From NCBI GenBank assembly GCA_016208745.1, contig JACQXN010000020.1:9062-73061 (forward strand): DNA of 64,000 bases. The letters are read 5' to 3'. The DNA is from Candidatus Portnoybacteria bacterium. GTDB taxonomy: Bacteria > Patescibacteriota > Minisyncoccia > Portnoybacterales > GWB1-42-6. How positions within the stretch are numbered: the first letter of the stretch is position 1; each line of letters begins with the position of its first letter. This document shows positions 3,194-37,695 of this stretch, piece by piece. The translations under genes and the position numbers were made by a program. The notes under the pieces were generated by a model. The model searched no databases and had not been told where the DNA came from. It saw only the letters and a program-made list of their open reading frames with translations.

Positions 3194-3805
3194 ATTATAG
3201 AACTCCCTGTCTATAAAACCCAAGGCATTATTTTAGAAAAGACCGATCTTTCGCCAACTGATCGGCTTTTGACTATTTACACTAAAAGCTTTGGCAAAAT
3301 TTTAGTTAGAGCCAAGGGGGTTGGCAAAAAAGAATCAAAGCTTAAATCTTTTCTGGAGCCGTTTAATTTATGCGAATTTTTACTGGCCAGAAGCAAAACC
3401 ATTGATGTTTTAACTGGCGTTGAATGTTTAAAAGAATTTATTCATTTGCGAAGCAATCTTGAGTCTCTGGCGCTCGCTTTTTATTTTTCGGAACTGATTG
3501 ATAAATTAGTTGTGGCGCCAGAACGAGATGAAAAAATTTGGACGTTATTGACAAGGGCGATGGAGGCGTTGGAAAAAGCATCATCCACAGAAGCAGAGCC
3601 AAAATTTTACCCTTCGACAAGCTCAGGGAATAAAATTTTAGCTCCAGGTTTACTCAAATTAAAATCAGCTTTTGAGGAAAAGCTGATTGAGTTTCTGGGA
3701 TATAAAATTGAAAAACCAAAAGATAATTTACGCTATATTCAATCTTTGGCTGGCGAAGAAATAAAATCAGCTAGATTTTTAAGGTCATTAAGTTTAAGCA
3801 AATAA
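3194..3805 (+). CDS. recO: DNA repair protein RecO (start codon uncertain)
   Basis: YKTQGIILEK..DRLLTIYTKSFGKI..AKGVGKKESKLKSFLEPF; homology extends upstream of the TTG at 3269; no ATG after the stop at 3179. Confidence 0.85.
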   Translation: MIELPVYKTQGIILEKTDLSPTDRLLTIYTKSFGKILVRAKGVGKKESKLKSFLEPFNLCEFLLARSKTIDVLTGVECLKEFIHLRSNLESLALAFYFSELIDKLVVAPERDEKIWTLLTRAMEALEKASSTEAEPKFYPSTSSGNKILAPGLLKLKSAFEEKLIEFLGYKIEKPKDNLRYIQSLAGEEIKSARFLRSLSLSK

Positions 3806-5001
3806 GTCTCTTGGGCGTTTCTGGCTTTTAGTTCCATTGAGCTTTTGTCTAACGATTTTTGCGAAATAACAATTCGCCAAGGAATGCCGATTAAATCCGC
3901 TTCAGCAAATTTTTTGCCGGCAGTGGCGTCTCGGTCGTCATATAAAACAGCATATCCGCGGCTTATCAGTTTTTCATAAAGGGCCTCCGCCTCTTTTTTT
4001 ATTTTTTCATCTTCACCTAAAGCTAGAAGATGAATATCAAATGGCGCGACTTCTTTGGGCCAAATAAGGCCTTTTTCATCGTGCCAGACTTCGGCTATGG
4101 CGCCCATGATTCTGGCTGGGCCCATGCCATAGCAACCCATAATGACTAATTTCTCTTGGCCGTCTTTGTCGCGGAATTTTAAATCAAACGGCTCGGAATA
4201 CTTTGTTTTTAGTTTAAAGATATTGGCGATTTCAACGGCTTTGACTTCTTTGAAATCATTACTGCCGCAGTCAGGGCAAGTTGGATTTTCTGGTTTTATT
4301 TCTTCATTAATTGCTAAGTCGCATTGCTGGCAAATATGGATTTTATCCTCGCCGCCTTCGGTTATGGTTTGGAATTCATGGGAATATTTGGAAAAACTGC
4401 CGCCCGAAGCCGCAGTTAAATAAGTTTGTTCATCTAATCCGCAGCGCTCAATGATTTTAAAATAAGCATCGGTTATTTTTTCGTAATAGCTATCAAGGTC
4501 TTTTTCGTCGGCATGAAAGGAATAAAGATCTTTCATGGAAAATTCGCGGGTGCGCAAGAGGCCGGATTTGGCGCGGATTTCATTGCGGAATTTGGTTTGA
4601 ATCTGAAAAATATATAGCGGGAGATCCTTGTAAGATAAAATAAATTTTTGCGCCAAAGGCACAACAATTTCTTCGTGTGTCGCGCCAAGCGCATATTCTT
4701 TTTCATCAGCCCCTTTTATTTTAAAAAGCGCATCAAAATTCTCCCAGCGGCCGGTTTTCTGCCAGTTTTCTTTGGGGTTTAACGCCGGCATCAAAATTTC
4801 TTGTCCGTCAACCGCAACCATTTCCTCACGGACAATGTTTTCTATTTTCCGCAAAACTTTCAAGCCCAGTGGCAGAAAAGAAAAAATTCCAGCTGAAAGC
4901 TTGTCAATAAAACCGCCCCGCGTTAGCAATTTGGCATTGACGCTTATTTCGTCTTTGGGCGCCTCTTTTTGAGTTTTGGTAAAAAGTTGCGATTGATGCA
5001 T
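3739..5001 (-). CDS. proS: Prolyl-tRNA synthetase (short form, no INS editing domain)
   Basis: GATHEE, QIQTKFRNEIR..GLLRTREF, MGCYGMG; likely start MHQSQLF at 5001; 3' end overlaps recO convergently. Confidence 0.96.
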   Translation of the reverse strand: MHQSQLFTKTQKEAPKDEISVNAKLLTRGGFIDKLSAGIFSFLPLGLKVLRKIENIVREEMVAVDGQEILMPALNPKENWQKTGRWENFDALFKIKGADEKEYALGATHEEIVVPLAQKFILSYKDLPLYIFQIQTKFRNEIRAKSGLLRTREFSMKDLYSFHADEKDLDSYYEKITDAYFKIIERCGLDEQTYLTAASGGSFSKYSHEFQTITEGGEDKIHICQQCDLAINEEIKPENPTCPDCGSNDFKEVKAVEIANIFKLKTKYSEPFDLKFRDKDGQEKLVIMGCYGMGPARIMGAIAEVWHDEKGLIWPKEVAPFDIHLLALGEDEKIKKEAEALYEKLISRGYAVLYDDRDATAGKKFAEADLIGIPWRIVISQKSLDKSSMELKARNAQETYLLKLNDLKNLADFISSPAKD

Positions 5002-5097
5002 TAACTTTAGTATAATAGCTGAAAGTCTATTTTGCAATAATCCGATTTTATTGTAGAATACAGAAAGGAGGGTTTTTAGTTTTAAACTTCTAATAAT

Positions 5098-8275
<3,178 letters not shown>

Positions 8276-8302
8276 TTCTTATTATTGGTATTTATACGAA
8301 AT

Positions 8303-8455
8303 AAAAAAGCGCCGTTTTATTAGCGCTTAAAGAGATGGGCGCGACAGAGAAAGGAAAGGAGAAATAGTTTTTTGCAGTTGGGGCCGGTTTCCCCTTCTGC
8401 AAAATCCTACCCTGTCGCGCCCGGCAAATTGGAAATTAGAAATTAGGGTACTATA
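8303..8455 (-). ncRNA. Candidate small structured RNA with its own promoter and terminator
   Basis: Minus-strand TTGACA(8489-8484)-17-TATTAT; 11-bp stem GGGCGCGACAG/CTGTCGCGCCC; AAGCGC/GCGCTT+T6 terminator; no ORF in the ORF track. Confidence 0.55.
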
Positions 8456-8565
8456 TTGCAATAATAGGTTAACTCAAATAACTTGTCAAGAGACAGGCGA
8501 AATATTATACTAAGTTTAGTTATCGTAGCAGATTTTTACGTTTTTTGATTATTTAACTTTCAACC

Positions 8566-8643
8566 ATGCAAGAAAACAATCTTATGGATAAAATAGTGAG
8601 TCTTTGTAAAAGGCGGGCCGCCCCTTTGGCGAGCCTCGCCTGA
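8566..8643 (+). pseudogene. Short diverged duplicate of the GlyRS N-terminus (25-codon ORF)
   Basis: MQENNLMDKIVSLCKRRAAPLASLA* versus GlyRS ...MDKIVSLCKRRGF. Confidence 0.75.
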
Positions 8644-8654
8644 CTTTTTAACAT

Positions 8655-9968
8655 ATGAAAGAAAATAATACAAACAATCAATCTGTGATGGATAAAATAG
8701 TAAGTTTATGCAAAAGGCGGGGTTTTATTTTTCCGGGTTCGGAAATTTATGGCGGTTTGGCCAATACTTATGATTATGGTCCGCTTGGCGTTGAACTTAA
8801 AAATAATATCAAGAATCTTTGGTGGAAATATTTTGTTCAGACTCGAGATGACATGGTTGGTTTGGACGGCGGGATAATTTCTAATGCCAAAATATGGGAA
8901 GCTTCAGGCCATATTAAAAATTTTAAAGACCCATTGGTAGAATGCAAAAAATGTCATCATCGCTTCCGGCCTGATAAATTAATAGATCCTTCAAAATGTC
9001 CTGACTGCGGCGGAGAATTTACCGAATCAAAAATGTTTAGCGGTTTATTCAAAACAACCATTGGGCCAGTTGAAGAAGAAGGAGAAATTGCTTATTTGCG
9101 GCCTGAAACCGCCCAGAATATGTTTGTGAATTTTAAAAATATTCTTGATTCATCGGGCAAAAAATTGCCGTTTGGCATTGGGCAAATGGGCAAGGCGTTT
9201 CGCAACGAAATAACGACCGGCAATTTTATTTTTCGGACTTTAGAATTTGAGCAAATGGAAATAGAATATTTCATTGCGCCCCAAAGCGATTGGAATAAAA
9301 TTTTTGAAAGTTGGCTGGAATATATTTATGGCTACGCTGATTTAATCGGGCTGGCGCGCGATAATTTCTTTAACCACGAAATTCCGGATGAAGAACGCGC
9401 TTTTTATTCCAAAAGAACAATTGACATAGAATATAAATTTCCTTTCGGCCAAGATGAACTTTGGGCAATTGCCTATCGGACAGATTATGATTTATCAGCG
9501 CATCAAAAAGCATCAAGCAGGAATCTTGAATATTTTGATGAAGAAACTAAGAAAAGATTTATTCCCCATGTGATTGAGCCGACTTTTGGCGTTGATAGAA
9601 CACTACTAGCTCTTTTATCAGAAAGTTACAGCGAAGAAGAAGGTAGAGTTGTTCTAAAGTTAAATCCTAAAGTCGCGCCATATAAAGCGGCGATATTTCC
9701 ATTATTGGCCAATAAGCCGCAATTGGTTGAGTCGGCACGTAAAATTTATGAGGATTTGCGGAAAGAATTTAATGTGGCTTTTGACGATCGCGGCAATATT
9801 GGCAAGCGTTATTTTTCTCAAGATGAAATCGGAACGCCTTTTTGTATTACAATTGATTTTGATAGCCTAGAGAAAAGCGATGTCACAGTACGCGATAGAG
9901 ATACAATGAAGCAGGAAAGGATTAAGATAGAGGACTTGAAGAGTTATTTTGAGAAGAAGCTGAATTAA
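8655..9968 (+). CDS. glyQS: Glycyl-tRNA synthetase, alpha2 type
   Basis: YDYGPLG, LRPETAQ, GKAFRNEI, EFEQMEIE, VIEPTFGVDR. Confidence 0.97.
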   Translation: MKENNTNNQSVMDKIVSLCKRRGFIFPGSEIYGGLANTYDYGPLGVELKNNIKNLWWKYFVQTRDDMVGLDGGIISNAKIWEASGHIKNFKDPLVECKKCHHRFRPDKLIDPSKCPDCGGEFTESKMFSGLFKTTIGPVEEEGEIAYLRPETAQNMFVNFKNILDSSGKKLPFGIGQMGKAFRNEITTGNFIFRTLEFEQMEIEYFIAPQSDWNKIFESWLEYIYGYADLIGLARDNFFNHEIPDEERAFYSKRTIDIEYKFPFGQDELWAIAYRTDYDLSAHQKASSRNLEYFDEETKKRFIPHVIEPTFGVDRTLLALLSESYSEEEGRVVLKLNPKVAPYKAAIFPLLANKPQLVESARKIYEDLRKEFNVAFDDRGNIGKRYFSQDEIGTPFCITIDFDSLEKSDVTVRDRDTMKQERIKIEDLKSYFEKKLN

Positions 9969-9978
9969 TTTTCTTTAA

Positions 9979-10158
9979 GCCACTTTTTGTGCCGACAAAA
10001 AGTGGCCAAAAAACTCTCGCCACGCGTAAAAAATAAAGAAAAATCGGGCTCGCTTCGCTAAATTTGCTATGCCCAGCGCTTCGCGCTGACAACCACAACA
10101 CGCAAATTTTTAACGCTCGGCTCGTCTCGATTTTCTAGTTATTTTTTCGCGATGGCGA
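9979..10158 (+). repeat. ~185-nt structured intergenic repeat (family F), copy 1
   Basis: Hairpin GCCACTTTTTGT/ACAAAAAGTGGC, CAAAAAACT linker and a long stem; similar copies at 24955 and 46201. Confidence 0.85.
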
Positions 10159-10172
10159 ATAAATTTTAGGCC

Positions 10173-11441
10173 ATGTTTAAAAAATATACTTTACCAAATG
10201 GTTTGAGAATTATTACGGCGCCGATTGAAGGAAGTAAATCGGTGACGGTTTTAGTTTTGGTTGGAACCGGCTCAAAATATGAGACAAAAGAGAATAATGG
10301 CTTATCTCATTTTTTAGAACACATGTTTTTTAAGGGGACAAAAAAGCGGCCGACCACCTTGGAAATTTCTTCTGATTTAGACGCGGTTGGCGGATCATAC
10401 AATGCCTTTACTTCAAAAGAGATGACTGGTTATTGGGCTAAGGTTGATGCTTCCCATTTTGATCTGGCGCTTGATTGGGTCTCAGATATATTTTTAAATT
10501 CAAAATTAGAAGAAGAAGAAATTGAGCGGGAAAAAGGCGTGATTTTGGAAGAAGTTAATATGTATTTGGATACGCCAATGACCGATATCTGGCATATTTG
10601 GGAGAAACTTTTATACGGCGATCAGCCAGCCGGTTGGCTGACGCTTGGCGAAAGAGAAATTATAAAATCAATGCGGCGCGAGCAGTTTTTGCAGTATCTT
10701 AAAAATCAATATGTCGCTAAAAACACAATGGTCGTTGTGGCCGGAAGCGAAAAAATAATTCAAAATTCAAAATCTAAAATTCAAAATTGTTTCAAAGATA
10801 TAAGAAAAGGGAGTTTTAAAAATAAACAAAAGGCCGTTGAGAAACAAAAAACACCGCAGGTTTTAATCCGTTTTAAAGAAACCGACCAGACACATTTAGT
10901 TTTGGGCGGGCGAAGTTATGATATTTTTCATAGAGACAGATTTGCTGCGGCTCTTTTAAATACGATCCTTGGCGGCTATATGAGTTCGCGTTTATGGATT
11001 GAAATTAGGGAGCGCCGGGGTCTAGCTTATTATGTCCGTTCAATCAATGAGACATATACTGACACAGGATATTTAGTGGCCAACGCCGGGCTTGATATTT
11101 CAAGAATCGACGAAGCGATAAAGGTTATTTTGGGAGAATTTAAAAAAATTAAAGAAGAGAAAGTTCCCGATAAGGAGCTTAAGAAAGCTAAAGATCATAT
11201 TAGGGGCGCGACTTTATTGGCTTTGGAATCATCTGATGAAATGGCCTCATATTTGGGCATGCAAGAAGTGATCAAAAAACAAATCTTGACACCAGAGCAA
11301 TTTTTCAGTAAAATAGAGAAAGTAACTCCTAATGATTTACAGCGAGTGGCTAAAGAAATTTTCCGACCTGAAAAATTAAATTTGGCCTTAATCGGGCCAT
11401 TTAAAGATAAGCAGAAGTTTGAGCGGTTGATTAAGATCTAA
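10173..11441 (+). CDS. M16 family zinc peptidase
   Basis: HFLEHMFFKGT (HxxEH), NAFT, IRERRGLAY. Confidence 0.95.
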   Translation: MFKKYTLPNGLRIITAPIEGSKSVTVLVLVGTGSKYETKENNGLSHFLEHMFFKGTKKRPTTLEISSDLDAVGGSYNAFTSKEMTGYWAKVDASHFDLALDWVSDIFLNSKLEEEEIEREKGVILEEVNMYLDTPMTDIWHIWEKLLYGDQPAGWLTLGEREIIKSMRREQFLQYLKNQYVAKNTMVVVAGSEKIIQNSKSKIQNCFKDIRKGSFKNKQKAVEKQKTPQVLIRFKETDQTHLVLGGRSYDIFHRDRFAAALLNTILGGYMSSRLWIEIRERRGLAYYVRSINETYTDTGYLVANAGLDISRIDEAIKVILGEFKKIKEEKVPDKELKKAKDHIRGATLLALESSDEMASYLGMQEVIKKQILTPEQFFSKIEKVTPNDLQRVAKEIFRPEKLNLALIGPFKDKQKFERLIKI

Positions 11442-11462
11442 AAAGTAGCGTAAAATTGTTCG

Positions 11463-11567
11463 GTAGAAATAATCATATTTTTCCGCACGCCTCTGTTATA
11501 TTGGCGCTCGCGCCAAAATCAATGAACCCACGGCCAGCCCGATGCAGAAAAATATGATTATTTCCAC
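11463..11567. repeat. Long intergenic inverted repeat
   Basis: GAAATAATCATATTTTTC / GAAAAATATGATTATTTC perfect 18-bp arms. Confidence 0.75.
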
Positions 11568-11578
11568 GCCTTAAAGCG

Positions 11579-12598
11579 ATGAATCAAACAATAAATATTT
11601 CAAGTTCTACTATCTGGCGCGCTATTTTCATAGTGATTTTTATTTTGCTTCTCTATTTTGTGCGCGATATTTTAATCTTGGTTTTCACTTCTTTAATTTT
11701 GGCGGCAGCGCTTGACCGGCCGATTGATCGTCTGCAAAAACATAAAATTCCCCGTGCTTTGAGCGCAATTTTAATATATGTTATCGCCCTCTCTGTTTCA
11801 GGCTTGATTATCTATTTAATAGTTCCGCCTCTGGTTTCTGAGGTTAAGGCTTTTGCTTCCAATTACTCTTTCTATCTTGATAAAATTAGCGATTGGTCAA
11901 AAAATACAGCTTCAATTGATTTTAGCGGTTTGTTAAAAGATTTGCCCGGCCAGCTGGCCGGCGGAGTGCAACCGGTTTTGACGGTGATTTCTAATATTTT
12001 TGGCGGGTTTGTTTCTTTTATCGTTATTTTCTTTTTGGCGCTATTTTTCAATATTCAAGAAAACGGCGTTAAAAAATTTATTTATTATTTAACGCCCAAT
12101 AAAAACCGCGAATATATTTTGGAGCTTTTCGGAAAAATCCAGCAAAAGATGAGCGCTTGGCTCTGGGGAAAAATTCTAATTGCTTTTTCTTTGGCGATTT
12201 TAACTTCAGCCGGATTGTATTTTATGGGAATAAAATACGCCCTGACTTTGGGCGTTTTGGCTGGTTTGCTAAATTTTATTCCTTATATCGGCGTGATTAT
12301 CGCCGCCATTCCGGCCATATTTTTGGGATTAGTTGAATCGCCTTTAATGGCATTAATCGTGGCGGCTTTTTATACTTTTCTTAACGCGGTGGTGGAGTCT
12401 TTTTTCTTAACGCCGCTTTTAATGAGAAAGGTGACCGGGCTTAATGCCGGGCTTTTGATATTAGTTGTTTTAATCGGCGCCAAACTCGCGGGAGTTTTGG
12501 GCATTATTTTGGCAATTCCTACAGCGGTTATTGTTTCTGTCTTAATTGATGAGTATATCAGAGGAAAACAGGTTGTCGGGAAAGAAACTGAACTCTAG
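11579..12598 (+). CDS. AI-2E family transporter
   Basis: Multi-TM; LNFIPYIG and GxLGxxLAIP signatures. Confidence 0.9.
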   Translation: MNQTINISSSTIWRAIFIVIFILLLYFVRDILILVFTSLILAAALDRPIDRLQKHKIPRALSAILIYVIALSVSGLIIYLIVPPLVSEVKAFASNYSFYLDKISDWSKNTASIDFSGLLKDLPGQLAGGVQPVLTVISNIFGGFVSFIVIFFLALFFNIQENGVKKFIYYLTPNKNREYILELFGKIQQKMSAWLWGKILIAFSLAILTSAGLYFMGIKYALTLGVLAGLLNFIPYIGVIIAAIPAIFLGLVESPLMALIVAAFYTFLNAVVESFFLTPLLMRKVTGLNAGLLILVVLIGAKLAGVLGIILAIPTAVIVSVLIDEYIRGKQVVGKETEL

Positions 12599-12633
12599 TT
12601 AACGTTTGCGCTTTCCAATCAGGCGATTAGAGA

Positions 12634-13107
12634 TTAATTTAAGGAAAAAAGCAACGCGATAGTAATAATCGTTACAGATGTTTGAAAGACCAGGCCGAAC
12701 CAATTGGGGCCCGGTTTTTCTTTTTGAAGATGAACAGTTTCGTGTATAAGCGCCAATACCTTAAGAATTTTTTGTTTTGGCATGCGCCAGTATAAAAATG
12801 TGAGTCCGTCAGGGATTATTGATCCAAGCATTGCCCAAGTTATCGGTGAATTTAAAGAAGGCGTGCCAAGAATCCAGAAAACAATGACTACGCCTGCGGC
12901 CAAATCCAAGAAGACTTTTAGCATTTGGGACAGAAATTTTTCATTGAATTTTGAATTGACCCTTTTTAAATAATAGATGGGATAATCGTAATGAGGAAAT
13001 AGATCCAAGAAATAATGTCCCAAAACACCAAGGGCAAAAGCGGTCGCGCTTGAACTAACTTGCGAGCCAATTAGTGCACCGGCAAGAATATGGGGGGCTA
13101 GAGTCAT
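12634..13107 (-). CDS. Membrane protein, putative metal-dependent hydrolase
   Basis: PHILAG, HYFLDLFPH and IIPD motifs with TM helices. Confidence 0.65.
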   Translation of the reverse strand: MTLAPHILAGALIGSQVSSSATAFALGVLGHYFLDLFPHYDYPIYYLKRVNSKFNEKFLSQMLKVFLDLAAGVVIVFWILGTPSLNSPITWAMLGSIIPDGLTFLYWRMPKQKILKVLALIHETVHLQKEKPGPNWFGLVFQTSVTIITIALLFSLN

Positions 13108-13151
13108 AAAACGACTTTAAACTTTAAACTTGTTACTTTATACTTCATAAT

Positions 13152-13835
13152 ATGGGTATATTATACATTATTGCGACGCCCATTGGCAATTTGGAGGATT
13201 TAAGCTTTCGGGCTTTGCGGGTCTTAAAGGAGGTTGATTTAATTGTTTGCGAAGATACGCGCCAGACTATAAAATTATTAAATCATTATAATATCCAAAA
13301 ACCGCTGGTTAGTTATTTTCAGCATAGTAAATTATCAAAAATAGAATATATCGGGGAACAGTTGGCGCAGGGCAAAAATATCGCGCTTGTTACAGATGCT
13401 GGCACGCCCGGGATTTCGGATCCAGGAGGCATGCTAGTTAACAAGTTAACAGGTGAACAGGTGAACAAGGAAGAATTTAAAATCGTGCCAATTCCTGGTC
13501 CAAACGCAGCGATTGCGGCTTTAAGCATTTCTGGCTTACCGGCTGACAAATTTATTTTTATGGGTTTCCCGCCGCACAAAAAGGGGAGAAATAAATTTTT
13601 TGATGAAGTCTTAGCTGCAAAATACACGGTCGTATTTTACGAATCAACGCATCGGATTTTGAAAACATTGGGACAATTGAATAAAGTCGCGCCGCAAAAA
13701 AATATTGTAGTTTGTCGTGAGCTAACCAAGCAATTTGAATCTATATATCGGGGTAGTGCACAAGAAATAATTAAAATTTTGGAAAGCGATAAAAATAATT
13801 TAAAAGGGGAATTTGTGATTGTAATCGGGAAATAA
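13152..13835 (+). CDS. rsmI: 16S rRNA C1402 2'-O-methyltransferase
   Basis: ATPIGNLED, EDTR, DAGTPGISDPG, RELTK. Confidence 0.96.
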   Translation: MGILYIIATPIGNLEDLSFRALRVLKEVDLIVCEDTRQTIKLLNHYNIQKPLVSYFQHSKLSKIEYIGEQLAQGKNIALVTDAGTPGISDPGGMLVNKLTGEQVNKEEFKIVPIPGPNAAIAALSISGLPADKFIFMGFPPHKKGRNKFFDEVLAAKYTVVFYESTHRILKTLGQLNKVAPQKNIVVCRELTKQFESIYRGSAQEIIKILESDKNNLKGEFVIVIGK

Positions 13836-13894
13836 AAAAAGCAGAGCGTTTAATTTGCTCTGCCATTAGGATAGGATGTAATAGGTGGTGGTTG

Positions 13895-14251
13895 CTATTT
13901 CTTTTGAGTTTCGCCGCCGATGTCGATATTTTTGACAATTTTTGGCGGCCGGTCGTCGTCAAGAAGGACCAACGCGTATTTCTCTTCGCCTTTCTTTTTG
14001 TATATTATTTCATGAACGATTACGGAGCTTTCTTCTGTGATCATGGGGTTGCTTCCTCCTATAAATGGATCATTTGGCGTATCAATGGCCCTGCCAGAAC
14101 GGATATTCAGGTACTGGATTATTCTGTCACAGTCGGAGAGCGAAGACACCACAAACCTAGCTTCCTCTTCGGAAGAACTCTGTAAGTTGGTGCATGCCAA
14201 AATTAAAGCAGAAAGCGATAGTAATACAATAAAAAGTGCTATCTTTTTCAT
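13895..14251 (-). CDS. Orphan predicted lipoprotein
   Basis: Signal peptide ending LILA-C; GGAGG SD upstream; hairpin plus T-tract downstream (13834-13864). Confidence 0.7.
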   Translation of the reverse strand: MKKIALFIVLLSLSALILACTNLQSSSEEEARFVVSSLSDCDRIIQYLNIRSGRAIDTPNDPFIGGSNPMITEESSVIVHEIIYKKKGEEKYALVLLDDDRPPKIVKNIDIGGETQKK

Positions 14252-14320
14252 TCCATCCTCCCTATTTTCATTATTCCGCTAGAATTCGCGGTTAAATTAA
14301 TATAGTATATATAGATAAAA

Positions 14321-15775
14321 ATGTCAAAATTTTATATCACCACAACCCTGCCTTATATCAACGCTGACCCGCATATCGGTTTTGCGATGGAAATAATTCA
14401 AGCGGATGTTTTGGCGCGGTTTTATCGAAAACAAGGCGCTGAAGTTTTTTTTAACACTGGCACAGACGAGCACGGTTTAAAAGTTTTTCGCAAAGCGCAG
14501 GAATTGGGCATCGAGCCGCAGGTATATTGTGATCAAAAAGTTGAGGTCTGGAAAAACTTAAAAGAGCTTTTAAATTTAAGCTTTGATAATTTTATTAGGA
14601 CAACCGATAAGCATCATATAGAAGCGGCGCAGGAACTTTGGCGGCGCTGTAAGCAAAACGGTTATCTTGATAAGAAAAAGTACAAAATTAAATATTGCGT
14701 TGGCTGTGAATTGGAAAAAACAGAGTCGGAATTAATTAATGGCTGCTGCCCTTTGCATCCCGACCAAAAACTTGAAATTATTGAAGAGGAAAATTATTTT
14801 TTCGCTTTTTCCAAATTTCAAAAAGAGCTCCTTTCTCTTTATGAGGCAAATCCATCTTTTGTTTATCCGCCTAAAAAATTTAACGAGATAAAAAAATTTG
14901 TCCAAATGGGGCTGGAAGATTTTAGCGTCTCACGTCTTAAAGCTAAGATGCCTTGGGGCATTGACGCGCCAGATGACAAGGAGCACGTAATGTATGTTTG
15001 GTTTGATGCGCTGGTTAATTATATTTCCGCCCTTGGCTGGCCAAAAGATTTGGAAAACTTTAACCAATGGTGGCCGGGAAGCCAAATCGCCGGCAAGGAT
15101 AATTTAAGACAGCAGACAGCTATGTGGCAAGCAATGCTTTTGGCCGCTGGCTTGCCAAATTCAAAGCAGATTTTTATCGGCGGCTTTATCACCGTCGCTG
15201 GCCAGAAAATGAGCAAAAGTCTGGGAAATGTTATCAGCCCCAAAGATATGGTGGATAAATTTGGCGCAGACGGCACGCGTTATTTACTCTTAACTTTGGG
15301 AGCTTTTGGCGAAGATGTGGATGTGACAATGGAAAGATTAACGGAAAAATATAATGCCGATTTGGCGAATGGACTAGGAAACTTAATTTCGCGGGTGATA
15401 AAATTGTCTCAAAATTATTCTTCGACCAAGCTCCGACCGAAGGTCGGAGCGCGTGGAGAAGTTCTCGACTCGTCCCGCTTGGCGGGACTCGCTCGAACAA
15501 TAAATGAAAGAATGCGGGAAATGAAATTTAAAGAAATTTTAGATGAAATCTGGGCGCAAGTGGCTTGGGCGAATAAATATATTGAGGAGAAAAAATTGTG
15601 GGAATTGGTAAAAAATGATCCGGAAGAAGGAGAGAAGGTTTTAGCAGAGTTACTTTCTTTAATTTCTGAAATTTCAGATGCCCTTACTCCTTTTATGCCC
15701 GAAACCGCGGAGAAAATTAAAAATATTTTATCTGGCGGCGAGTCGGGAGAAATATTATTTCCGAGGGTAAAATAA
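14321..15775 (+). CDS. metG: Methionyl-tRNA synthetase (short form)
   Basis: PYINADPHIG, GTDEHG, YVWFDAL, KMSKS. Confidence 0.97.
   Translation: MSKFYITTTLPYINADPHIGFAMEIIQADVLARFYRKQGAEVFFNTGTDEHGLKVFRKAQELGIEPQVYCDQKVEVWKNLKELLNLSFDNFIRTTDKHHIEAAQELWRRCKQNGYLDKKKYKIKYCVGCELEKTESELINGCCPLHPDQKLEIIEEENYFFAFSKFQKELLSLYEANPSFVYPPKKFNEIKKFVQMGLEDFSVSRLKAKMPWGIDAPDDKEHVMYVWFDALVNYISALGWPKDLENFNQWWPGSQIAGKDNLRQQTAMWQAMLLAAGLPNSKQIFIGGFITVAGQKMSKSLGNVISPKDMVDKFGADGTRYLLLTLGAFGEDVDVTMERLTEKYNADLANGLGNLISRVIKLSQNYSSTKLRPKVGARGEVLDSSRLAGLARTINERMREMKFKEILDEIWAQVAWANKYIEEKKLWELVKNDPEEGEKVLAELLSLISEISDALTPFMPETAEKIKNILSGGESGEILFPRVK
15417..15501. repeat. Palindromic insertion in-frame inside metG
   Basis: GCTCCGACC-GAA-GGTCGGAGC and TCCCGC-TTG-GCGGGA hairpins in a GC-rich stretch of the anticodon-binding domain. 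Confidence 0.8.
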
Positions 15776-15811
15776 TAAATATAAGCGTCATGGATTGCAG
15801 GAGTTAATAAT

Positions 15812-16330
15812 ATGGATGTAAAATCATATTTGTCGCCCAAAATAAAAATAGGCCAAAGCAAGGTACAGGGGCTTGGGTTGTTTGCGGTCGAAAATATAAA
15901 AAAAGACGAAATTATTGGTATAAAAGCGGGGTATATAATTAATAGAGAAACCCTAGAGAGAATAGGAGGATTAAAGAGCGATATAGGGCAAAGTATGCTG
16001 CAGGTTAGCGATGAATTTTTCATCGGTCCGTTAACCGCGGATGATATTGGAGATAGCATGATGTATGTTAATCACTCATGCGAGCCCAATATTGGAATGC
16101 TGGGCGATGTCATTAATGTAGCGATGAGAGACATAGTTATAGGTGAGGAGTTAACCGCGGATTATGCCGTTGCATTGATCCATCCCTCTCTTTTAATGGA
16201 ATGCAATTGTGGGGCTATAAATTGCCGTAAGATAATTACTGGCGAAGATTGGAAGCGACCAGAATTACAAGGCAGATATAAAGGATATTTTTCGGCTTAT
16301 ATTCAAAAAAAGATAAAGGAAGAAAAATGA
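15812..16330 (+). CDS. SET domain protein
   Basis: GLGLFA, NHSCEPN, GEELTADY, post-SET CNCGAINC. Confidence 0.92.
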   Translation: MDVKSYLSPKIKIGQSKVQGLGLFAVENIKKDEIIGIKAGYIINRETLERIGGLKSDIGQSMLQVSDEFFIGPLTADDIGDSMMYVNHSCEPNIGMLGDVINVAMRDIVIGEELTADYAVALIHPSLLMECNCGAINCRKIITGEDWKRPELQGRYKGYFSAYIQKKIKEEK

Positions 16331-16331
16331 C

Positions 16332-16598
16332 ATGGCAACCATTAAGAAAAAAATTTGGCCGGAATATTTTGATGATGTAGCTTCGGGGAAAAAGAAATAC
16401 GAGCTACGTTTAAATGATTTTAAAGTTAAAGAAGGGGATACATTAATCCTTGAAGAATGGGATCCAAGAACTAAAAAATATACAGGCAGAAAAACTGAGA
16501 AGAAAGTAACTTATGTCGGGAAATTTAAGGTTGATAGATTATTCTGGCCGGAAGAAGAGATAAAAGAAAAAGGAATACAGATTATATCATTGGAATAA
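16332..16598 (+). CDS. ASCH/DUF3850 domain protein
   Basis: KIWPEYF..V.SGKKKYELR.ND....GD.LILEEW. Confidence 0.88.
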   Translation: MATIKKKIWPEYFDDVASGKKKYELRLNDFKVKEGDTLILEEWDPRTKKYTGRKTEKKVTYVGKFKVDRLFWPEEEIKEKGIQIISLE

Positions 16599-16602
16599 TT
16601 TT

Positions 16603-17259
16603 ATGAGTTTTGAATCTAGCAAAGAAAATATAAAAGAGTCGGAGAAAGAGATAAAGTGGCGCCAGGCCGAACAAGAAATTGAGGGTATCGGAGACAAGCG
16701 GAGGAAAGGAATTGATGAGGGGATAAAATTTACAGTGGTTTCTCTTAGGGTAAATGGTTTTGGAACTACGGCCTCCTGCGAGGGTCATTTAGATCGTGGC
16801 CTCCCTTGGCCATGGGTTGATGTGGAGTCTAAATTAGCGGAAAGTTTGATTGGCAGTCCCCATTATAATGAATTACGAGAAAAGGCCGGAAGCATGTTAA
16901 GGAGAGAAGGGAAAATGATTGAGGAAGAGAAATCAGAATACCAGAGTTTAGTTAGCGCGCAAATAGAAGAGAACGAGAAAGAATATAGGCGGCTTAGCGG
17001 TTTACTGGAAGAGTTTTACGGGCAAGAATCTCAAAAAAAAGAAGAGGGTCTTGTGGGGGTCGCTCATCTAAAAATCAAAAAATTTCCGTGGAACCAAAGC
17101 CGGCTTCAACCGGAAGACGTTCCTGAAAATTTAATGCCGCGGGAAGCCTAGAAATTATGGACCAAGGAAGAAAAATCAAAAAAACTTATGGTATACAGAC
17201 AAGAGATGGAAAGATTTGCCGATTTTCTTAAAGAGAAATTTTTAACGCAGGGAGTATAA
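16603..17259 (+). CDS. Hypothetical protein with in-frame TAG at 17149-17151 (possible pseudogene or sequence error)
   Basis: T..SCEGH motif; frame stays open 35 codons past the TAG to TAA at 17259. Confidence 0.6.
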
Positions 17260-17307
17260 ATGATGCTTCAAAGCGCAGGGGCAGATAATTAGTAAGTAAG
17301 TAATTCT

Positions 17308-17847
17308 ATGGACATCTTTTCTCACGGCCTTTGGGCCGGTGCGCTTTATAAGGCGATAAATTTAAAGAAGGAAAAGCCTAAATTGAAGGTTTGGCTGGCG
17401 GCTCTTTGGTCAGTGGCGCCGGATATTTTTTCTTTCGCGCCTGTTTTTATATGGGTTTTTGCGGGTGTCATTTTTGGCGGAATGAGTTTTTCTGATTTGC
17501 CGGGCCCTGATTCAGTTGAGCCAATGGCCAGAAATTCGCTGGCAATTTTTCGGTTCACCGACACGCTTTATAATATCACGCACAGCTTAACGATTTTTCT
17601 TATCGCCGCTGGCTTGGTTGGCTTTTTTGGCAAACGCATTCCTTGGGAAGCAGGCGGTTGGCTATTCCATATTCTAATTGATATTCCAACCCATTCTTAT
17701 AAATTCTATCCAACGCCATTTTTATGGCCTTTTTCTGAATGGAAATTTGACGGATTCGCTTGGGGAAATTGGTGGTTTATGATAATTAATTATTCTTTGT
17801 TAATTTTGGTTTTTTTGGCGTTGAGGTCGGCGCGTAAAAAAGGTTAA
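17308..17847 (+). CDS. Membrane-bound metal-dependent hydrolase (YdjM/YbcI-like)
   Basis: SHGLW, APD, THSL, HILID..TH motifs. Confidence 0.75.
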   Translation: MDIFSHGLWAGALYKAINLKKEKPKLKVWLAALWSVAPDIFSFAPVFIWVFAGVIFGGMSFSDLPGPDSVEPMARNSLAIFRFTDTLYNITHSLTIFLIAAGLVGFFGKRIPWEAGGWLFHILIDIPTHSYKFYPTPFLWPFSEWKFDGFAWGNWWFMIINYSLLILVFLALRSARKKG

Positions 17848-17932
17848 TTGTGCAACCGGTAACTTGATCAATCGTTGCACAGTCTATTAAATCTCCCCTA
17901 GCCCCTCCTAAAGGAGGGGAATTACTCCTTAT

Positions 17933-18763: not shown

Positions 18764-18784
18764 TGCAAATATCATGCGAATCTT

Positions 18785-19180
18785 ATGCAAATGCCGCAAA
18801 TAGATAAGATGATCTATCCGGAATTATCATATAAGGTCTGTGGTCTATGTTTTTATATTCATAACCGACTGGGTCGATATAGGAACGAAAAGCAATATGG
18901 CGATGCACTAGAAGTTGCTTTTGATGAAGCGGGCATCATTCACAAAAGAGAAAAAAGGTTGCCAGCATCTTTTGTCGGAGAGAAAAGCTATAGGAATATA
19001 CCGGACTTTATCATTGAAGATAAGCTGATTGTTGATTTGAAAGCCAAAACCATAATCACAAAAGATGATTATTTCCAGATGAGGCGCTATCTAGTCTCTT
19101 ATAAAAAGAGGCTGGGTCTCATTATTAATTTCCGTCAAAAATATTTGAGACCAAAAAGAATCCTAAATAAATTTGCTTGA
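18785..19180 (+). CDS. GxxExxY protein (PD-(D/E)XK nuclease-like)
   Basis: LGRYRNEKQY motif; PDFIIEDK..VDLKA; GLIINF. Confidence 0.88.
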   Translation: MQMPQIDKMIYPELSYKVCGLCFYIHNRLGRYRNEKQYGDALEVAFDEAGIIHKREKRLPASFVGEKSYRNIPDFIIEDKLIVDLKAKTIITKDDYFQMRRYLVSYKKRLGLIINFRQKYLRPKRILNKFA

Positions 19181-21373: not shown

Positions 21374-21380
21374 GGAATAT

Positions 21381-23987
21381 ATGGATAAATATGACCCGAA
21401 AAAAGTAGAGCCCAAATGGCAGAAGTTTTGGGAGGAACATCCCGAGCTTTTTTCAGCCAAAGAAGATTCCAAGGGAAAAAAGGAATAGATTTTGGATATG
21501 TTTCCATATCCTTCAGGCGATGGTTTGCATACCGGGCATGTTGAAAGCTATACCGCAACAGATATCATTTCCCGTTATTGGCGTATGAAGGGAAAAAATG
21601 TTTTGCATCCGCAGGGCTTTGACGCTTTTGGTTTGCCGGCAGAAAACTTTGCCATTAAAACAAAGATTCATCCTTCGCAAACCACTCAAAAAGCAATTGC
21701 CACTTTCAAGCAGCAAATGAATATGCTCGGATTTTCCTATGATTGGTCGCGGGAAGTTAATTCGTCTGACCCAAAATATTATAAGTGGACACAATGGTTT
21801 TTTCTTTTACTTTACAAAAATGGTCTGGCATATAGGGGTAAAGCAAAAGTTAATTGGTGCAATTCTTGTCAAACGGTTTTGGCCAACGAACAGGCCGAAG
21901 GCGGAGTTTGCGAGCGATGCGGCAGTCCGGTTGTGCAAAAGGATTTGGAGCAGTGGTTTTTTAAAATTACTGATCTTATTGAATCCAAGGGCGCTACTTC
22001 CGGATTGCTACAGGGTCTTGATAAAATTGACTGGCCAGAATCAACCAAAGCCGGCCAGCGCAACTGGATAGGGAAGTCAGAGGGAGCGCAGTTTAAAATG
22101 GAAATTATAACCAGTACCACCCCGGCCTCCGGCCACCCCTCCTCAGCTGAGGAGGGGACGAAAGGGGAGGTGTTGGATTATATTGAAGTTTTTACAACGC
22201 GATTGGACACGGTTTTTGGGATGACTTTTGCCCTTATCGCTCCGGAACATAAGATTATCAACGAGCTTAAATCGCAAATTGAGAATTGGAGTGAGGTTGA
22301 AAAATATATTGAAGAGGCCAGGAAAAAATCAGAGTTGCAAAGAATTTCTGAAACCAAAGAAAAAACAGGAGTGGAAATAAAAGGCGTAAAAGTTATTAAT
22401 CCTTTTACCGAGCAGGAAATTCCGGTTTTTATTTCCGACTTTGTTTTAGCGCATTATGGAACAGGCGCTGTTATGGCCGTTCCCGGACACGACCAGCGCG
22501 ATTACGAATTTGCTAAAAAATTTAACCTGCCGATTATTGAAGTGATAAAAAGCGAGGACAGAAAATCATCAATTGAAAAGGAGGCATTTATAGAAGATGG
22601 GGTATTGGCTAATTCGCGCGAATACGACAATACAACTTCTGCAAAAGCACGCGAAAAATTAATTGAGTGGATCCAGAAAAATAATCTGGGCGAAAAGAAA
22701 ATTAATTACAAAATGCGCGATTGGTTGGTTTCGCGGCAAAGATATTGGGGCGCGCCAATCCCGATAATTTATTGTCCGCAATGTTGTCATTCCCGCCCCG
22801 CATCGCAGTACGGGGCGAATCTAGAAAACGAAAAATCTGGATCCCGGATCAAGTCCGGGATGACAGAATTTGAAATTACAGAGATTGACGGAAAAAAATA
22901 TGCGATGGTCCCCATTCCAGAAAAAGATTTACCAGTGCTTTTGCCTGATGATGTTGATTTTATGCCGCATGGCGAATCCCCTCTTTCAAAATCAAAAAAA
23001 TTTCACGATGTTTCGTGTCCAAAATGCGGAGAGAAGGCGAAAAGGGAGTCAGACACAATGGACACATTTGTCTGTTCCTCCTGGTATCATTTCCGTTATG
23101 CTGATCCGAAAAACGAAAAAGAATTTGCCAGCAAAGAGAAAATAGAGAAATGGTTGCCAGTTGATTTGTATGTTGGGGGCGCGGAGCATACGGTTTTACA
23201 TCTTTTGTATTCCCGTTTTTTTACCAAGGCCTTGCATAATCTCGGCTACATTGATTTTGACGAGCCGTTTTTAAAAATGCGGCATCAAGGAATAATTTTG
23301 GCTGAAGACGGCCAAAAAATGTCAAAGTCGCTCGGCAATGTTATCAATCCTGATTCGGTGGTGGCACAATATGGCGCCGATGCCTTACGGATGTTTGAAA
23401 TGTTTATGGGGCCGCTGGAAGATGCAAAACCTTGGAATACTAAGGGGATCACCGGGATCTATAGGTTTTTGGAGAAAGCATGGAGGATAAGCTTAAAGTT
23501 TAAAGTTAAAAGTGAAAAGTCAGGGCTAGAAGTTAAAAGTTTAATACATAAAACAATTAAGAAAGTTAGTGAAGACATAGAAAAATTAAAATTTAATACA
23601 GCTATCAGCGCATTAATGGTTTTGCTAAATGAGATTGAAAAAAACGAAGAAATGCCCATCGAGGTTTTTGAAAAGTTTTTAATTCTCCTTTCGCCCTTTG
23701 CGCCGCATATCTCAGAGGAGATTTGGTCACAGTTAGGTCATGAAGAAAGTATTTTTAAAGAAAAATGGCCTGAATATAATCCCGAATTAATTAAAGAAGA
23801 GATAATTGAGTTGATCATTCAGATTAACGGCAAGGTGCGCGATACGATTTCTGTGGCGGTTGATATTTCGGAAACTGACGCTAAAAAACTCGCGCTTGAA
23901 AGCGAGAAGATAAAAAAATATCTTTTGGGCAGAGAGCCAAAGAAAATTATTTTTGTTAAAGAGAAACTAATAAATATTGTATTGTGA
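21381..23987 (+). CDS. leuS: Leucyl-tRNA synthetase, with in-frame TAG at 21486-21488
   Basis: MDKYDPKKVEPKWQKFW N-terminus in frame with MFPYPSG..HTGH; GAVMAVP, SRQRYWG, KMSKS. Confidence 0.93.
22116..22170. repeat. Family A-like hairpin in-frame inside leuS
   Basis: CCCCTCCTCAGCTGAGGAGGGG palindrome, compare 58381 and 62719. Confidence 0.85.
22785..22865. repeat. Family B palindrome in-frame inside leuS
   Basis: TGTCATTCCCG...CCGGGATGACA, 81 bp. Confidence 0.88.
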
Positions 23988-24302
23988 TTTTCAGTTTTTT
24001 ATATAAAAAGATTGACTTTAAAGTGCTATTGCGATAGATATAACATAAAGGGAGCAAAAATCGGTATCTGTTGCATGGGGCGTGTGGAAATAAGCAAAAT
24101 GAGAAGTCCCGGGCTAGTATCGTTTTGCAAAACTTCCATAATCTTGCTGGAGGCCAGGCGCATTTATTGCGGCTGTTGCCGAAAAAAAGAGTGCATGAAA
24201 GATTTTGCCGGTTAATCTCCTCTCTCCCTTCCCCCTTGCATCAACAAGGGGGATTTTCATTTGTATTTTTAGCGAGATTGAGGATATAATTGATTTAAAG
24301 AT

Positions 24303-24947: not shown

Positions 24948-24954
24948 TTTTCAT

Positions 24955-25146
24955 GCCGCTTTTTTGGCAGCAAAAAAGCGGCGGAAAAAACTGCGCCCAG
25001 AGCGTAAAAATTTAATAAAATCGGATTCGCCTCGCTAAATTTGCTATCCACAACGCCCCAACCTTACGGTCGGGGCCCCACCACAGCACGCAAATTTTAC
25101 GCTTGGCTCATCGCGATTTTATTAATAAATTTTTCGCTATAGGCGG
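24955..25146 (+). repeat. Family F structured repeat, copy 2
   Basis: GCCGCTTTTTTG/CAAAAAAGCGGC plus long stem with TCGCTAAATTTGCTAT...CACGCAAATTTT. Confidence 0.85.
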
Positions 25147-25154
25147 TGAATTAA

Positions 25155-27810: not shown

Positions 27811-27963
27811 CTACGGAATACAGATAAGTACAGATATACGGATAAAAACAAAATCCACCCCGCCCCTCCTTTAAAAAGGAGGGAGATTCCTCCCTTTGAA
27901 AAAGGGAGGGTAGGAGGGATTTGGATTTAATCTGTATATCTGTAATAAATCCATAATCCGTAG
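27811..27963. repeat. Family C periodic inverted arms (ACAGAT/ATCTGT) enclosing a family A repeat (27851-27922)
   Basis: CTACGGAATACAGAT...ATCTGTA..ATCCGTAG. Confidence 0.85.
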
Positions 27964-34783: not shown

Positions 34784-34856
34784 TGTCATTCTGGGCCCCT
34801 ACCCGTCCGGCAGACGGGAACCCGCAATCTAGATTCCCGTTTTCACGGGAATGACA
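34784..34856. repeat. Family B palindrome with nested GC hairpin
   Basis: TGTCATT...CTAGATTCCCGTTTTCACGGGAATGACA. Confidence 0.82.
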
Positions 34857-35441: not shown

Positions 35442-35501
35442 TTAAGGTTATAAGCCCGAGCCATTTTTAGGATTCGGGTTTTTTATTTCTTCATTTCCTC
35501 C

Positions 35502-35606
35502 ACCCCGTTAGAAATTACTGCGATTAATCGTATGAGGCAAAATTATCTTTTTGCGTTATAAGTATACTTATTTATGTTTATACGTTCTCATAATTTCTAA
35601 CGAGGT
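35502..35606. mobile_element. MITE-like 105-bp element inserted in the mfd 3' end
   Basis: TIRs ACCCCGTTAGAAATTA / TAATTTCTAACGAGGT; TCCACC at both junctions; removal restores EAVEEMKK*. Confidence 0.75.
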
Positions 35607-37695
35607 CCACCGCTTCATTCAGCATCTGGATATATAGATTAAGCCCCACGGCGTTGATTTGGCCTGATTGTTCGCGGCCCAAGATATTGCCTGCCCCGCG
35701 GATTTCCAAATCGCGCAGAGCGATTTGATAGCCAGAACCAAGCGCTTGCGCTTCTTTTAGCGCGTCTAATCTTTGTTGCGCAATGTCGGTCAGATTTTTT
35801 TCATTATACAAAAAATAGGCATAGGCCTGTTTATCAGAGCGCCCAATTCTGCCTCGCAATTGATAGCTTTGGGCCAGGCCAAGTTTTGTCGCGTTTGCAA
35901 CAATTAGAGTATTAACATTGGGAAAATCCAAGCCGTTTTCAATAATTGTTGTGGCCACTAGAATATCAATCTTTTTTTCGCCAAAATCATCCATCACTTT
36001 TATCAATTGTTTTTCGTTCATGCGGCCGTGAGCAATAGCAATATAAATTTTCCCCCCCTCCTTTTTAAAGCCTGCCTGTCCGGTAGGCAGGGAGGGGTGG
36101 GGTGGATTTTTTGAATTATCTCCATCCGTAGAATAAATCCCTCCCAGCCTCCCTTTAAAAAGGGAGGAGTTTTTTAGTAATTTCTCAATCTGCTTCTTTG
36201 CCAGTTCAATTGTTTCAATCCGATTATGCAGATAATAAATTTGTCCGCCTCGCTTTAATTCAAATTCAATCGCTTTTTTAATTGTTTTTGGTGAATAGGG
36301 TTCAATAAATGTTTTAACTGCCAATCGGCCGGGCGGCGCGGTTTGAATTAAACTGATATCGCGCAAGCCGGTTAAAGATAAATGCATTGTTCTTGGGATA
36401 GGCGTGGCGCTCAAACTTAAAATATCTATGTTGGCGCGCATTTCTTTAAATCGCTCTTTTTGTTTAACGCCAAATCTTTGTTCCTCATCTATTATAACTA
36501 GTCCAAGACTTGGAAACTCTACGTCTTTTTGAATGAGACGATGGGTGCCAATAACAATATCAGTCTGGCTGTCTTTAATTTGTTTTATGGTTTGAGCCTG
36601 ATTCTTTTTTGATTCCAATCTTGAAAGCAGCGCGATATTAATTGGAAATTTTTTAAGCCGGTTTAAAAAATTATGATAATGCTGGTGGGCTAAAATGGTT
36701 GTTGGCGTGATTAAAGCTACCTGTTTGCCAGCAGTTACTGCTTTAAAAGCCGCGCGCAAAGCGATCTCTGTTTTGCCAAAACCAACATCCCCGCAAATTA
36801 ATCTGTCCATTGGTTTTTCCGATTCCATATCTTTTTTAACGTCTCTCATAGCAGACAATTGATCTTCGGTTTCAATATATAAAAAAGAATCTTCCAGCTC
36901 TTTTTGCAAAGCGTCATCTGGCGGAAATTTAAAACCAGAAACTGCTGCGCGCTTGGCATAAATCTCCAATAATTCTTTAGCCAGATTCAAGGCGCTTTCT
37001 TTGATTTTTCTTTTGGTTTTATACCAGAGCGTTCCGCCAAGGCGATGCACAATCGGCGTTTCAAAGCCAATGTATCTGGTTAATTTTTCTTCCAGTTCAA
37101 GCGGCACATAAAGCCGGTCATTTTTGGCGTATTCTAAAACGAAATATTTTTCTTGACTCTCGGGCGTCGGCGAGTTAAAAGAAAGCTCGCCACCTAGTTC
37201 TTTGGCAAAGCCCTTAAAAATGCCAATGCCATGGTCCAGATGAACCAGATATTCATTCGGTTTTAAATTTGCCAGAAGTTGCGAAGGCGCTTGTTTTTTA
37301 AGGGCTTTCTTGATTGTTTCTGGCTTTTCGTCGATTTTAATTTCAAGAGAAAAAATTTCAGCCAGCTCATTGCCGGAAAATTCAAGGCGCAAGGCCGAAT
37401 CCATATTTATCGGAAAAATATCTAAGATCCCGCCGCGTTGGGAGAGCTCGCCGGGTCTAGCCAATGTTTGCACGCGCTCATAACCAAAATTAGTCAGTTT
37501 TCTTAATAGCTCAAATAGATTTATTCTCTGATTTTTTTCTAAAAAGATCGTATTATCCTTCCACCAGATCTGGGTTTTAGCTACTTCTTCTATTTTTTTT
37601 TGGTTTTCGGAGAACCAAAAGATATCCCGATCTAGGAAATACGGCGACAAGCTTGCAATTAGAATTTTAGTTGGATTTTTACTTTCTGATATCAT
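35578..37695 (-). CDS. mfd: Transcription-repair coupling factor, shortened
   Basis: QRGGILDIFP, VHLDHGIG (RID), GDVGFGKTE, DEEQRFG, SATPIPRT, QLRGRIGR, DLEIRGAG; no C-terminal TRCF domain. Confidence 0.93.
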   Translation of the reverse strand: MISESKNPTKILIASLSPYFLDRDIFWFSENQKKIEEVAKTQIWWKDNTIFLEKNQRINLFELLRKLTNFGYERVQTLARPGELSQRGGILDIFPINMDSALRLEFSGNELAEIFSLEIKIDEKPETIKKALKKQAPSQLLANLKPNEYLVHLDHGIGIFKGFAKELGGELSFNSPTPESQEKYFVLEYAKNDRLYVPLELEEKLTRYIGFETPIVHRLGGTLWYKTKRKIKESALNLAKELLEIYAKRAAVSGFKFPPDDALQKELEDSFLYIETEDQLSAMRDVKKDMESEKPMDRLICGDVGFGKTEIALRAAFKAVTAGKQVALITPTTILAHQHYHNFLNRLKKFPINIALLSRLESKKNQAQTIKQIKDSQTDIVIGTHRLIQKDVEFPSLGLVIIDEEQRFGVKQKERFKEMRANIDILSLSATPIPRTMHLSLTGLRDISLIQTAPPGRLAVKTFIEPYSPKTIKKAIEFELKRGGQIYYLHNRIETIELAKKQIEKLLKNSSLFKGRLGGIYSTDGDNSKNPPHPSLPTGQAGFKKEGGKIYIAIAHGRMNEKQLIKVMDDFGEKKIDILVATTIIENGLDFPNVNTLIVANATKLGLAQSYQLRGRIGRSDKQAYAYFLYNEKNLTDIAQQRLDALKEAQALGSGYQIALRDLEIRGAGNILGREQSGQINAVGLNLYIQMLNEAVDLVRNYENV
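36049..36170. repeat. Family A repeat with nested 21-bp palindrome, in-frame inside mfd
   Basis: CCCCTCCTTT..AAAG[CCTGCCTGTCCGGTAGGCAGG]GAGGGG. Confidence 0.9.

Follow-up and report, generated by a model that had tools for sequence, protein, structure and literature searches.

How do palindromic repeats come to lie in frame inside the genes of conserved enzymes? The question is raised by a 64,000-nucleotide stretch (the window) of a Candidatus Portnoybacteria genome (GenBank GCA_016208745.1, contig JACQXN010000020.1, positions 9,062–73,061 of the forward strand), in which a preliminary description had placed such repeats in recO, tgt, metG, leuS (at two sites) and mfd. The assembly, here termed G000, comprises 859 kb and is 97.8% complete, the window being on its contig C11; other G-numbered genomes, among them G004 and G008, are relatives used for comparison. 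Our results support that description, and on balance the repeat families are likely to be non-autonomous selfish elements that spread by way of nuclease-like genes and are translated as disordered loops.

All six segments, with their peptides, lie in open reading frames (Table 1), and a Pfam search of the window upheld the identities of the five genes and also located dprA. Measured as the number of residues between fixed anchors in G000 and its relatives, the inserts add 14 to 40 residues. The tgt stretch has 37 residues, compared with 10–22 in 18 of the 19 relatives with data and 35 in the other (10 of the 29 loci gave no anchor match); the mfd stretch has 69, compared with 29–30 in 8 of 13 distinct genomes and 60–84 in the remaining five. 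In LeuS, site 1 spans 36 residues (17 in 17 of 28 relatives, 21–23 in three and 33–230 in eight), and site 2 spans 55 (16 in 23 of 28, 22 in one and 45–69 in four), where about 13 of the 39 extra residues resemble a non-repeat extension of three other genomes. The recO stretch is 52 residues long (32–35 in 15 of 18 relatives, 44–63 in three). The contrast is weakest in metG, with 60 residues (45–48 in 15 of 23, 50–57 in eight) and an element of about 29 codons whose net gain is only 14 residues. Palindrome-free orthologues did not carry segments of equal length at these positions, which would have spoken against insertion, and on the evidence of these alignments the six segments are derived insertions.

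Folding is stronger than that of dinucleotide shuffles for five of the six inserts (z −3.0 to −4.4), the exception being tgt, which folds no better than its shuffles (z −0.23) despite containing two local hairpins. Other matching loci within G000 number 43 for the mfd insert (31 intergenic), 39 for tgt (30), 16 for leuS site 1 (10), 11 for recO (6, including the copy near 48386 reported earlier), 9 for leuS site 2 (4) and 1 for metG (none intergenic). The statement that intergenic families also occupy reading frames accordingly stands for five inserts and fails for metG, whose element recurs in genes of relatives (metG of G014, tgt of G006 and a locus in G015) and for which no partner gene was identified.

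The inserts had been placed, as a probability, in surface loops, and AlphaFold models bear this out for Tgt and LeuS. The Tgt insert is positioned between a helix (residues 170–195) and a strand (residues 224–229), with a pLDDT below 50 at residues 199–204 and 212–218. LeuS site 1 is modelled at the tip of a strand pair (residues 195–207 and 227–235; pLDDT below 50 at 211–223), and site 2 forms a loop, residues 438–458, with a pLDDT below 50. Both proteins are thus predicted to accommodate their inserts as disordered loops; because any segment missing from the alignment would be modelled with low pLDDT, the telling feature is their placement between secondary-structure elements. In Mfd, the insert coincides with a break, between residues 507 and 551, in the alignment to the solved protein. 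Conserved motifs of the host enzymes are intact.

Genome-wide load and shared sites

Repeat intervals were defined by using intergenic regions as queries against the whole genome, with shuffled queries as a control and genes called by a simple hexamer model (876 genes in G000). G000 holds 409 intergenic, 84 gene-internal and 14 gene-end intervals, against one with shuffled queries; this load of about 500 intervals covers 43 kb of a 0.86-Mb genome. Some of the 84 gene-internal intervals are weak or miscalled (tRNA overlap, over-extended starts, AT-rich matches), and 57 of them, in 43 genes that mostly encode soluble core enzymes, each match at least five other loci, in keeping with the earlier proposal that several unrelated families lie in frame at high density. 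For several families, roughly one copy in two is inside a gene. The corresponding counts are 246, 49 and 20 in G004, and 75, 7 and 1 in G008, which is nearly free of detectable repeats.

The gene-internal intervals are concentrated in conserved genes: 75 of the 84 fall within the 389 three-way orthologues of G000, G004 and G008, which make up 55% of coding length (p = 1e-11). Targets named through their G008 orthologues include trmD, rnhB, miaB, miaA, ychF, gltX, ileS, argS, valS and cysS; dnaG, uvrA, uvrB, uvrC, recG, recR, priA, prfB, lepA, rsmA and rsmH; and tsaD, pnp, murC and murE, to which glycosyltransferases, named separately, are added. A streamlined genome that tolerates repeats in more than 40 enzymes in effect maps which loops of tRNA and DNA-repair enzymes are permissive, and the lineage-specific indels in these marker proteins are unreliable phylogenetic characters.

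Solubility of the product is a clear filter on gene-internal repeats. Their density in G000 is 25.8 per 100 kb in soluble core genes and 4.3 in core genes with a hydrophobic segment, compared with 4.2 in soluble non-core genes, 0 in hydrophobic non-core genes and 274 in intergenic DNA; in G004, soluble core genes have 12.1 per 100 kb and core genes with a hydrophobic segment 2.5. Nucleic-acid enzymes account for 29 of 40 annotated targets (those of 49 with a usable G008 orthologue) and for 14 of 50 random non-target core genes (p = 4e-5), the classes having been assigned by hand with different E-value cut-offs. A special preference for such enzymes was rejected on comparison with the 23 cytosolic controls among the 50 (p = 0.39). 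Separately, intergenic repeat density grows with the number of core-gene neighbours (1.1, 1.7 and 2.9 per kb in G000; 0.7, 0.9 and 2.1 in G004), a gradient consistent with residence time. A block of 17 non-core genes on contig C21 (genes 626–642 of G000) has no gene-internal repeat; its products have recombinase-like N-termini, and it may be an integrated element.

Unrelated repeats occupy the same sites in different genera. Twenty genes have internal repeats in both G000 and G004, where 5.5 are expected by length among soluble core genes, and 19 of the 23 G004 sites in shared genes lie within 12 residues of a G000 site, compared with 5.1 expected and a maximum of 15 in 200,000 random draws. 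At 13 of the 19 coinciding sites the two genomes carry dissimilar sequence; in trmD, the slot is filled by a dimer of the Ssn-related motif (SRM) in one genome and by a heptamer array in the other. The long stretches at leuS site 1 in eight relatives are of visibly different kinds and scattered over a quick tree, which does not separate repeated gain from repeated loss, and the mfd site is likewise occupied by long inserts in five of 13 genomes. The repeats also occur within one another: by eye, two small hairpins are nested inside other repeats in all seven and in 14 of 16 of their copies, respectively, including those in the mfd and leuS site 2 inserts, which suggests that repeats are themselves targets for insertion. 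Loop tolerance alone could also concentrate hits, and with two genomes it is inseparable from repeat targeting. As a separate observation at leuS site 1, LeuS of G013 (L017; G013:C12:17050-20160) has about 213 extra residues, a whole domain, and LeuS of G007 (C19) has a frame of 1076 residues.

Partner genes and the spread of the repeats

Several families are paired with small genes that encode nuclease-like proteins. G000 has one DUF559 gene, 14 GIY-YIG matches (one of them UvrC), three four-helix-bundle genes and three GxxExxY genes. A search for RAYT (Y1 transposase, PF01797), the sole transposase family covered, found none in G000, so RAYT as mobiliser and membership in REP–RAYT systems were rejected.

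The DUF559 gene (G000:C13:26364-26736 region) is bracketed by inverted arms. The mfd insert consists of the left arm, spacer and right arm of this cassette and agrees with the left arm at 34 of 35 bases; the same two arms recur in opposite order in the tgt insert, so the earlier derivation of both from one element holds. Among the relatives, an arm motif was present on at least one side of 25 of 29 DUF559 loci (a thirtieth yielded no alignment), as against 32 of 841 controls. By eye, arm subfamilies track different N-termini of the DUF559 protein, and one subfamily is that of leuS site 1. Among 40 relatives, DUF559 and the tgt/mfd pattern occur together in 12, DUF559 alone in 3, the pattern alone in 1 and neither in 24. 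The left arm of DUF559 cassettes (L317–L346) ends in a purine-rich tract directly before the start codon, which may supply a ribosome-binding site, and a copy of this arm lies directly upstream of leuS (window 21335–21381).

The leuS site 2 insert is a strict match, on the minus strand, to the published SRM pattern, which has 20 matches in G000 (3.0 in shuffles), 9 of them inside genes. Two intergenic loci in the window match the pattern as well. A strict SRM also stands on both sides of a 96-residue single-domain GIY-YIG gene (G000:C25:3926-4213), for whose protein NCBIfam returned no model. Inverted GTCA-tagged arms flank 25 of 29 Ssn-like loci on both sides, compared with 6 of 841 controls; the strict pattern is found on one side at only 8 of the 29, most arms of relatives missing it. 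The recO core has a 19-nt exact match to the upstream flank of a second GIY-YIG gene (G000:C13:230-445), and inverted short-word arrays enclose the four-helix-bundle and GxxExxY genes. Seven small GIY-YIG genes adjoin tRNA-like sequence (G000:C6:7333, C7:9153, C7:9512, C13:24505, C16:17446, C4:5506 and C1:9839); at several, by eye, part of the tRNA is repeated on both sides, as in elements integrated into tRNA genes.

From this pairing we infer nuclease-driven mobility. The cognate small protein would cut at or beside its hairpin arm, an activity measured for SsnA proteins only, of Neisseria and Wolbachia (PMC11893778, accessible text), and repair or recombination would then lay copies of the arm down elsewhere. 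Selection would discard insertions that break the frame, strike the folded core or fall in exported proteins, so that insertions survive in a limited number of loops of soluble enzymes. Since repeats are themselves hit by other repeats, an occupied loop would become a landing pad, and the tenant of a slot would change between genera. If true, this would provide candidate enzymes for repeat families of unexplained spread (TMECO-like and SRM/RPE-like) and ready enzyme–target pairs, possibly including new sequence-specific single-strand nucleases. The genome-wide counts, enzyme–arm pairs and slot sharing make mobility directly testable.

Several observations weigh against this account. The genomes compared include no pair of filled and empty alleles within one species and yielded no target duplication, so that present-day mobility is conjectural. 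No strand-transfer step is known for GIY-YIG or PD-(D/E)XK enzymes, nor are four-helix-bundle proteins known to be nucleases. The joint occurrence of DUF559 and its repeat is hard to separate from taxonomy (families f1 and f5), and leuS of G008 has an SRM-like insert although its genome yields no Ssn-like match at E 1e-18. The contrast between core and non-core genes, strong in G000 (p = 4e-10), is weak in G004 (p = 0.04–0.07). A called insertion of at least 8 residues overlaps only 37 of 75 core-gene intervals in G000 and 4 of 36 in G004; many repeats therefore substitute for a loop without lengthening it. At six of the 19 shared sites the two sequences resemble each other and may go back to a common ancestor, the slot test being one of two genomes against one reference. 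No RNA run was listed that contains this DNA, and retention of the inserts in RNA and protein is presumed from frame conservation. For the system closest to leuS site 2, Chenal et al. report that SsnA lowers transformation, mobility being raised there merely as a hypothesis (PMC11893778, accessible text).

Tentatively, the selfish-element account may extend to a guild within the Patescibacteria, although we would not stake much on it: transposase-free mini-cassettes (DUF559, several GIY-YIG subgroups, GxxExxY and four-helix bundle) would each copy their own arms by means of a small nuclease-like protein and target the repeats of other families, and a fixed set of core-enzyme loops would act as rotating slots in which peptides are swapped between lineages.

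It is rather doubtful that host processes (recombination between copies, template switching and slippage) spread the repeats, with the nuclease-like genes as bracketed passengers and the slots as merely insertion-tolerant loops. In its favour, no transposase chemistry is known for these partners, heptamer arrays can lengthen by slippage, and slots vary in length without repeats, as at tgt site B (38–45 residues in family f6). It sits poorly with the fact that the arms closely abut start and stop codons and that each protein family has its own, with the existence of large soluble core genes unhit in both G000 and G004, and with the near-total nesting of two small hairpins in other families.

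We consider it unlikely that the hairpins are domesticated DNA tags, at which host-kept nucleases would cut incoming single-stranded DNA and control core-gene recombination during transformation, the peptide being a by-product. SsnA and its repeat do modulate transformation in Neisseria (PMC11893778, accessible text). The presence of dprA within the window, the greater repeat density in core genes and between them (2.9 versus 1.1 per kb) and the large intragenic share of several families, set beside 2% in N. meningitidis, would fit such a role. Tenants that differ between genera and the scarcity of repeats in G008 do not, and the avoidance of exported proteins points to a filter acting on protein, not DNA.

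Reading frame and assembly

The inserts are likely to be translated into tolerated loops, as frame conservation suggests. An insert of random length preserves the frame one time in three, and only 170 of the 954 frames of intergenic copies (18%) are free of stops. When every protein of G008 and G004 was used to look for genes interrupted at a repeat, two candidates emerged, neither of them a true frame-breaking insertion: recO is in frame and had been missed by the gene caller, and the break on contig C9 is a 215-base assembly gap filled by the contigs of all three runs that bear on it. As no frame-breaking insertion was found, the repeats are probably translated and not removed. G, P, S and K are abundant in the peptides, which are likely to have no function of their own, because gene-internal copies are read from either strand and in several frames. 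Removal from RNA or protein, by micro-introns, ribosomal bypass or intein-like excision, is highly improbable: the mRNA hairpins would be strong, but every observed insertion keeps the frame, when 82% of intergenic-copy frames hold a stop, and the varied strands and frames and the lack of conserved terminal residues also speak against it.

Misjoining of repeats into genes during assembly has a negligible chance of being the explanation and is already largely refuted. The assembly does contain six in-frame stops and about seven frameshift-like breaks in conserved genes, but inserts are present at the same sites in relatives, and independently assembled contigs of four DNA runs cover the tgt, metG and leuS inserts with no joint that skips one. 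These runs come from one study, three of them possibly the source of the assembly, and their contigs were examined over window positions 7000–24000, with recO and mfd outside that interval. The in-frame TAG of leuS is most likely an assembly error, being read as TAT by the contigs of three runs (the fourth gave no cover); stop-codon recoding was rejected on this ground and because the six internal stops mix TAA, TGA and TAG. Both breaks that were checked, in leuS and on C9, are contradicted by the run contigs. In the recO start region (window 3179–3270) there is no ATG, GTG or TTG where relatives begin; ATA stands there, either an assembly error or an unusual start codon.

Known systems and other features of the window

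In-frame palindromes of this type work like the Rickettsia palindromic elements (RPE), a known kind of insertion first conceived 25 years ago. RPE (Ogata et al. 2000, 2002, as summarised in PMC10969869 and PMC3733652) are likewise palindromes found both between genes and in frame in unrelated genes, DNA-repair and tRNA-related genes among them. The present inserts share the defining features of in-frame position and absence from orthologues, and all except metG in G000 have copies both between and inside genes. For the approximately 150-bp RPE, PMC10969869 states one conserved peptide per family, whereas the present inserts have no single conserved peptide. They further differ from RPE in their likely patescibacterial host, in their length (45–130 nt, often compound), in the pairing of several families each with a candidate enzyme and in the use of the same sites by unrelated families across genera. 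Repeat insertions described elsewhere are at differing sites, except for recB in two Xanthomonas species (PMC3733652, accessible text).

Three other systems are similar in part. The leuS site 2 insert fits the SRM of Ssn nucleases with SRM/NTS repeats (Chenal et al. 2025, PMC11893778), and the SRM-flanked GIY-YIG gene of G000 resembles that system, its nuclease activity being predicted; the intragenic share of the pattern matches, 9 of 20, is unlike that of the N. meningitidis SRM. The main text of PMC11893778 does not mention Patescibacteria or CPR, although its supplements may list such genomes with SRM. With the TMECO/BoxC intrastrand-triplex motif (Holder et al. 2015, PMC4666352), the tgt/mfd family shares a C-rich stem, loop, G-rich stem and second G-rich tract, as well as occurrence in inverted pairs. 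TMECO is, unlike this family, described as intergenic in the accessible text, its published pattern has no match in G000, G004 or G008, so strict membership was rejected, and the main text of PMC4666352 does not mention DUF559 or an endonuclease. REP/REPIN–RAYT units and CGTC- or GTAG-tagged REPs (Di Nocera et al. 2013, PMC3733652, accessible text) also combine a hairpin and tail, form dimers in both orientations, flank a small gene and in some cases lie inside repair or tRNA synthetase genes; their partner is RAYT, unlike the DUF559, GIY-YIG, GxxExxY and four-helix-bundle genes found here. In a comparison with MITEs, the arms proved to be inverted repeats of a cassette that bears an open reading frame, and no empty allele is close enough for a duplication to be read. 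Listings from the literature searches, which do not cover most subscription papers, gave no description of such repeats in Patescibacteria, of DUF559 arm pairing or of slots common to unrelated families. Multi-nuclease pairing is likewise absent from the papers searched.

Table 1 Inserts, intergenic copies and related features (window positions unless a contig is named)
Feature	Position	Strand	Remarks
recO hairpin repeat	3596..3644	+	+20 residues; core also upstream of a GIY-YIG gene
tgt two-unit repeat, DUF559-arm family	7630..7714	+	about +20 residues; 28/29 identical to right arm
metG compound hairpin	15414..15503	+	+14 residues net; no intergenic copy in G000
GxxExxY (PD-(D/E)XK-type) gene	18785..19180	+	bracketed by own inverted short-word arrays
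leuS, full gene	21381..23987	+	in-frame TAG at 21486-21488
leuS site 1 hairpin, second DUF559-arm subfamily	22112..22175	+	+19 residues
leuS site 2 SRM dimer	22783..22866	+	20-nt hairpin nested at 22796-22815
Third leuS loop, short heptamer-type array	23495..23520	+	no net length gain; G004 array at same site
mfd left arm, spacer and right arm of DUF559 cassette	36045..36172	-	+40 residues; 21-nt hairpin nested at 36071-36091
Intergenic copy, tgt/mfd family	27845..27922		others at 21294-21373, 54167-54250, 55629-55670, 57479-57562
Intergenic copy, recO core	48376..48404	+	
Intergenic SRM dimer	52780..52850		another at about 34785-34855
Intergenic copy, leuS site 1 family	58371..58477		another at 62709-62745
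In-frame stops and frameshift-like breaks	21486-21488; G000:C4:45509, C25:21853, C12:1541, C21:19347, C4:21707, C9:5336		

The window contains two further kinds of repeat. A longer intergenic family of about 200 bases is present in three copies (9969–10172, 24948–25154 and 46160–46423). Two unannotated proteins (56549–57412 and 58545–61349) have internal tandem repeats, formed by Gly/Asp-rich 9-base units and by three copies of a 118-base unit.

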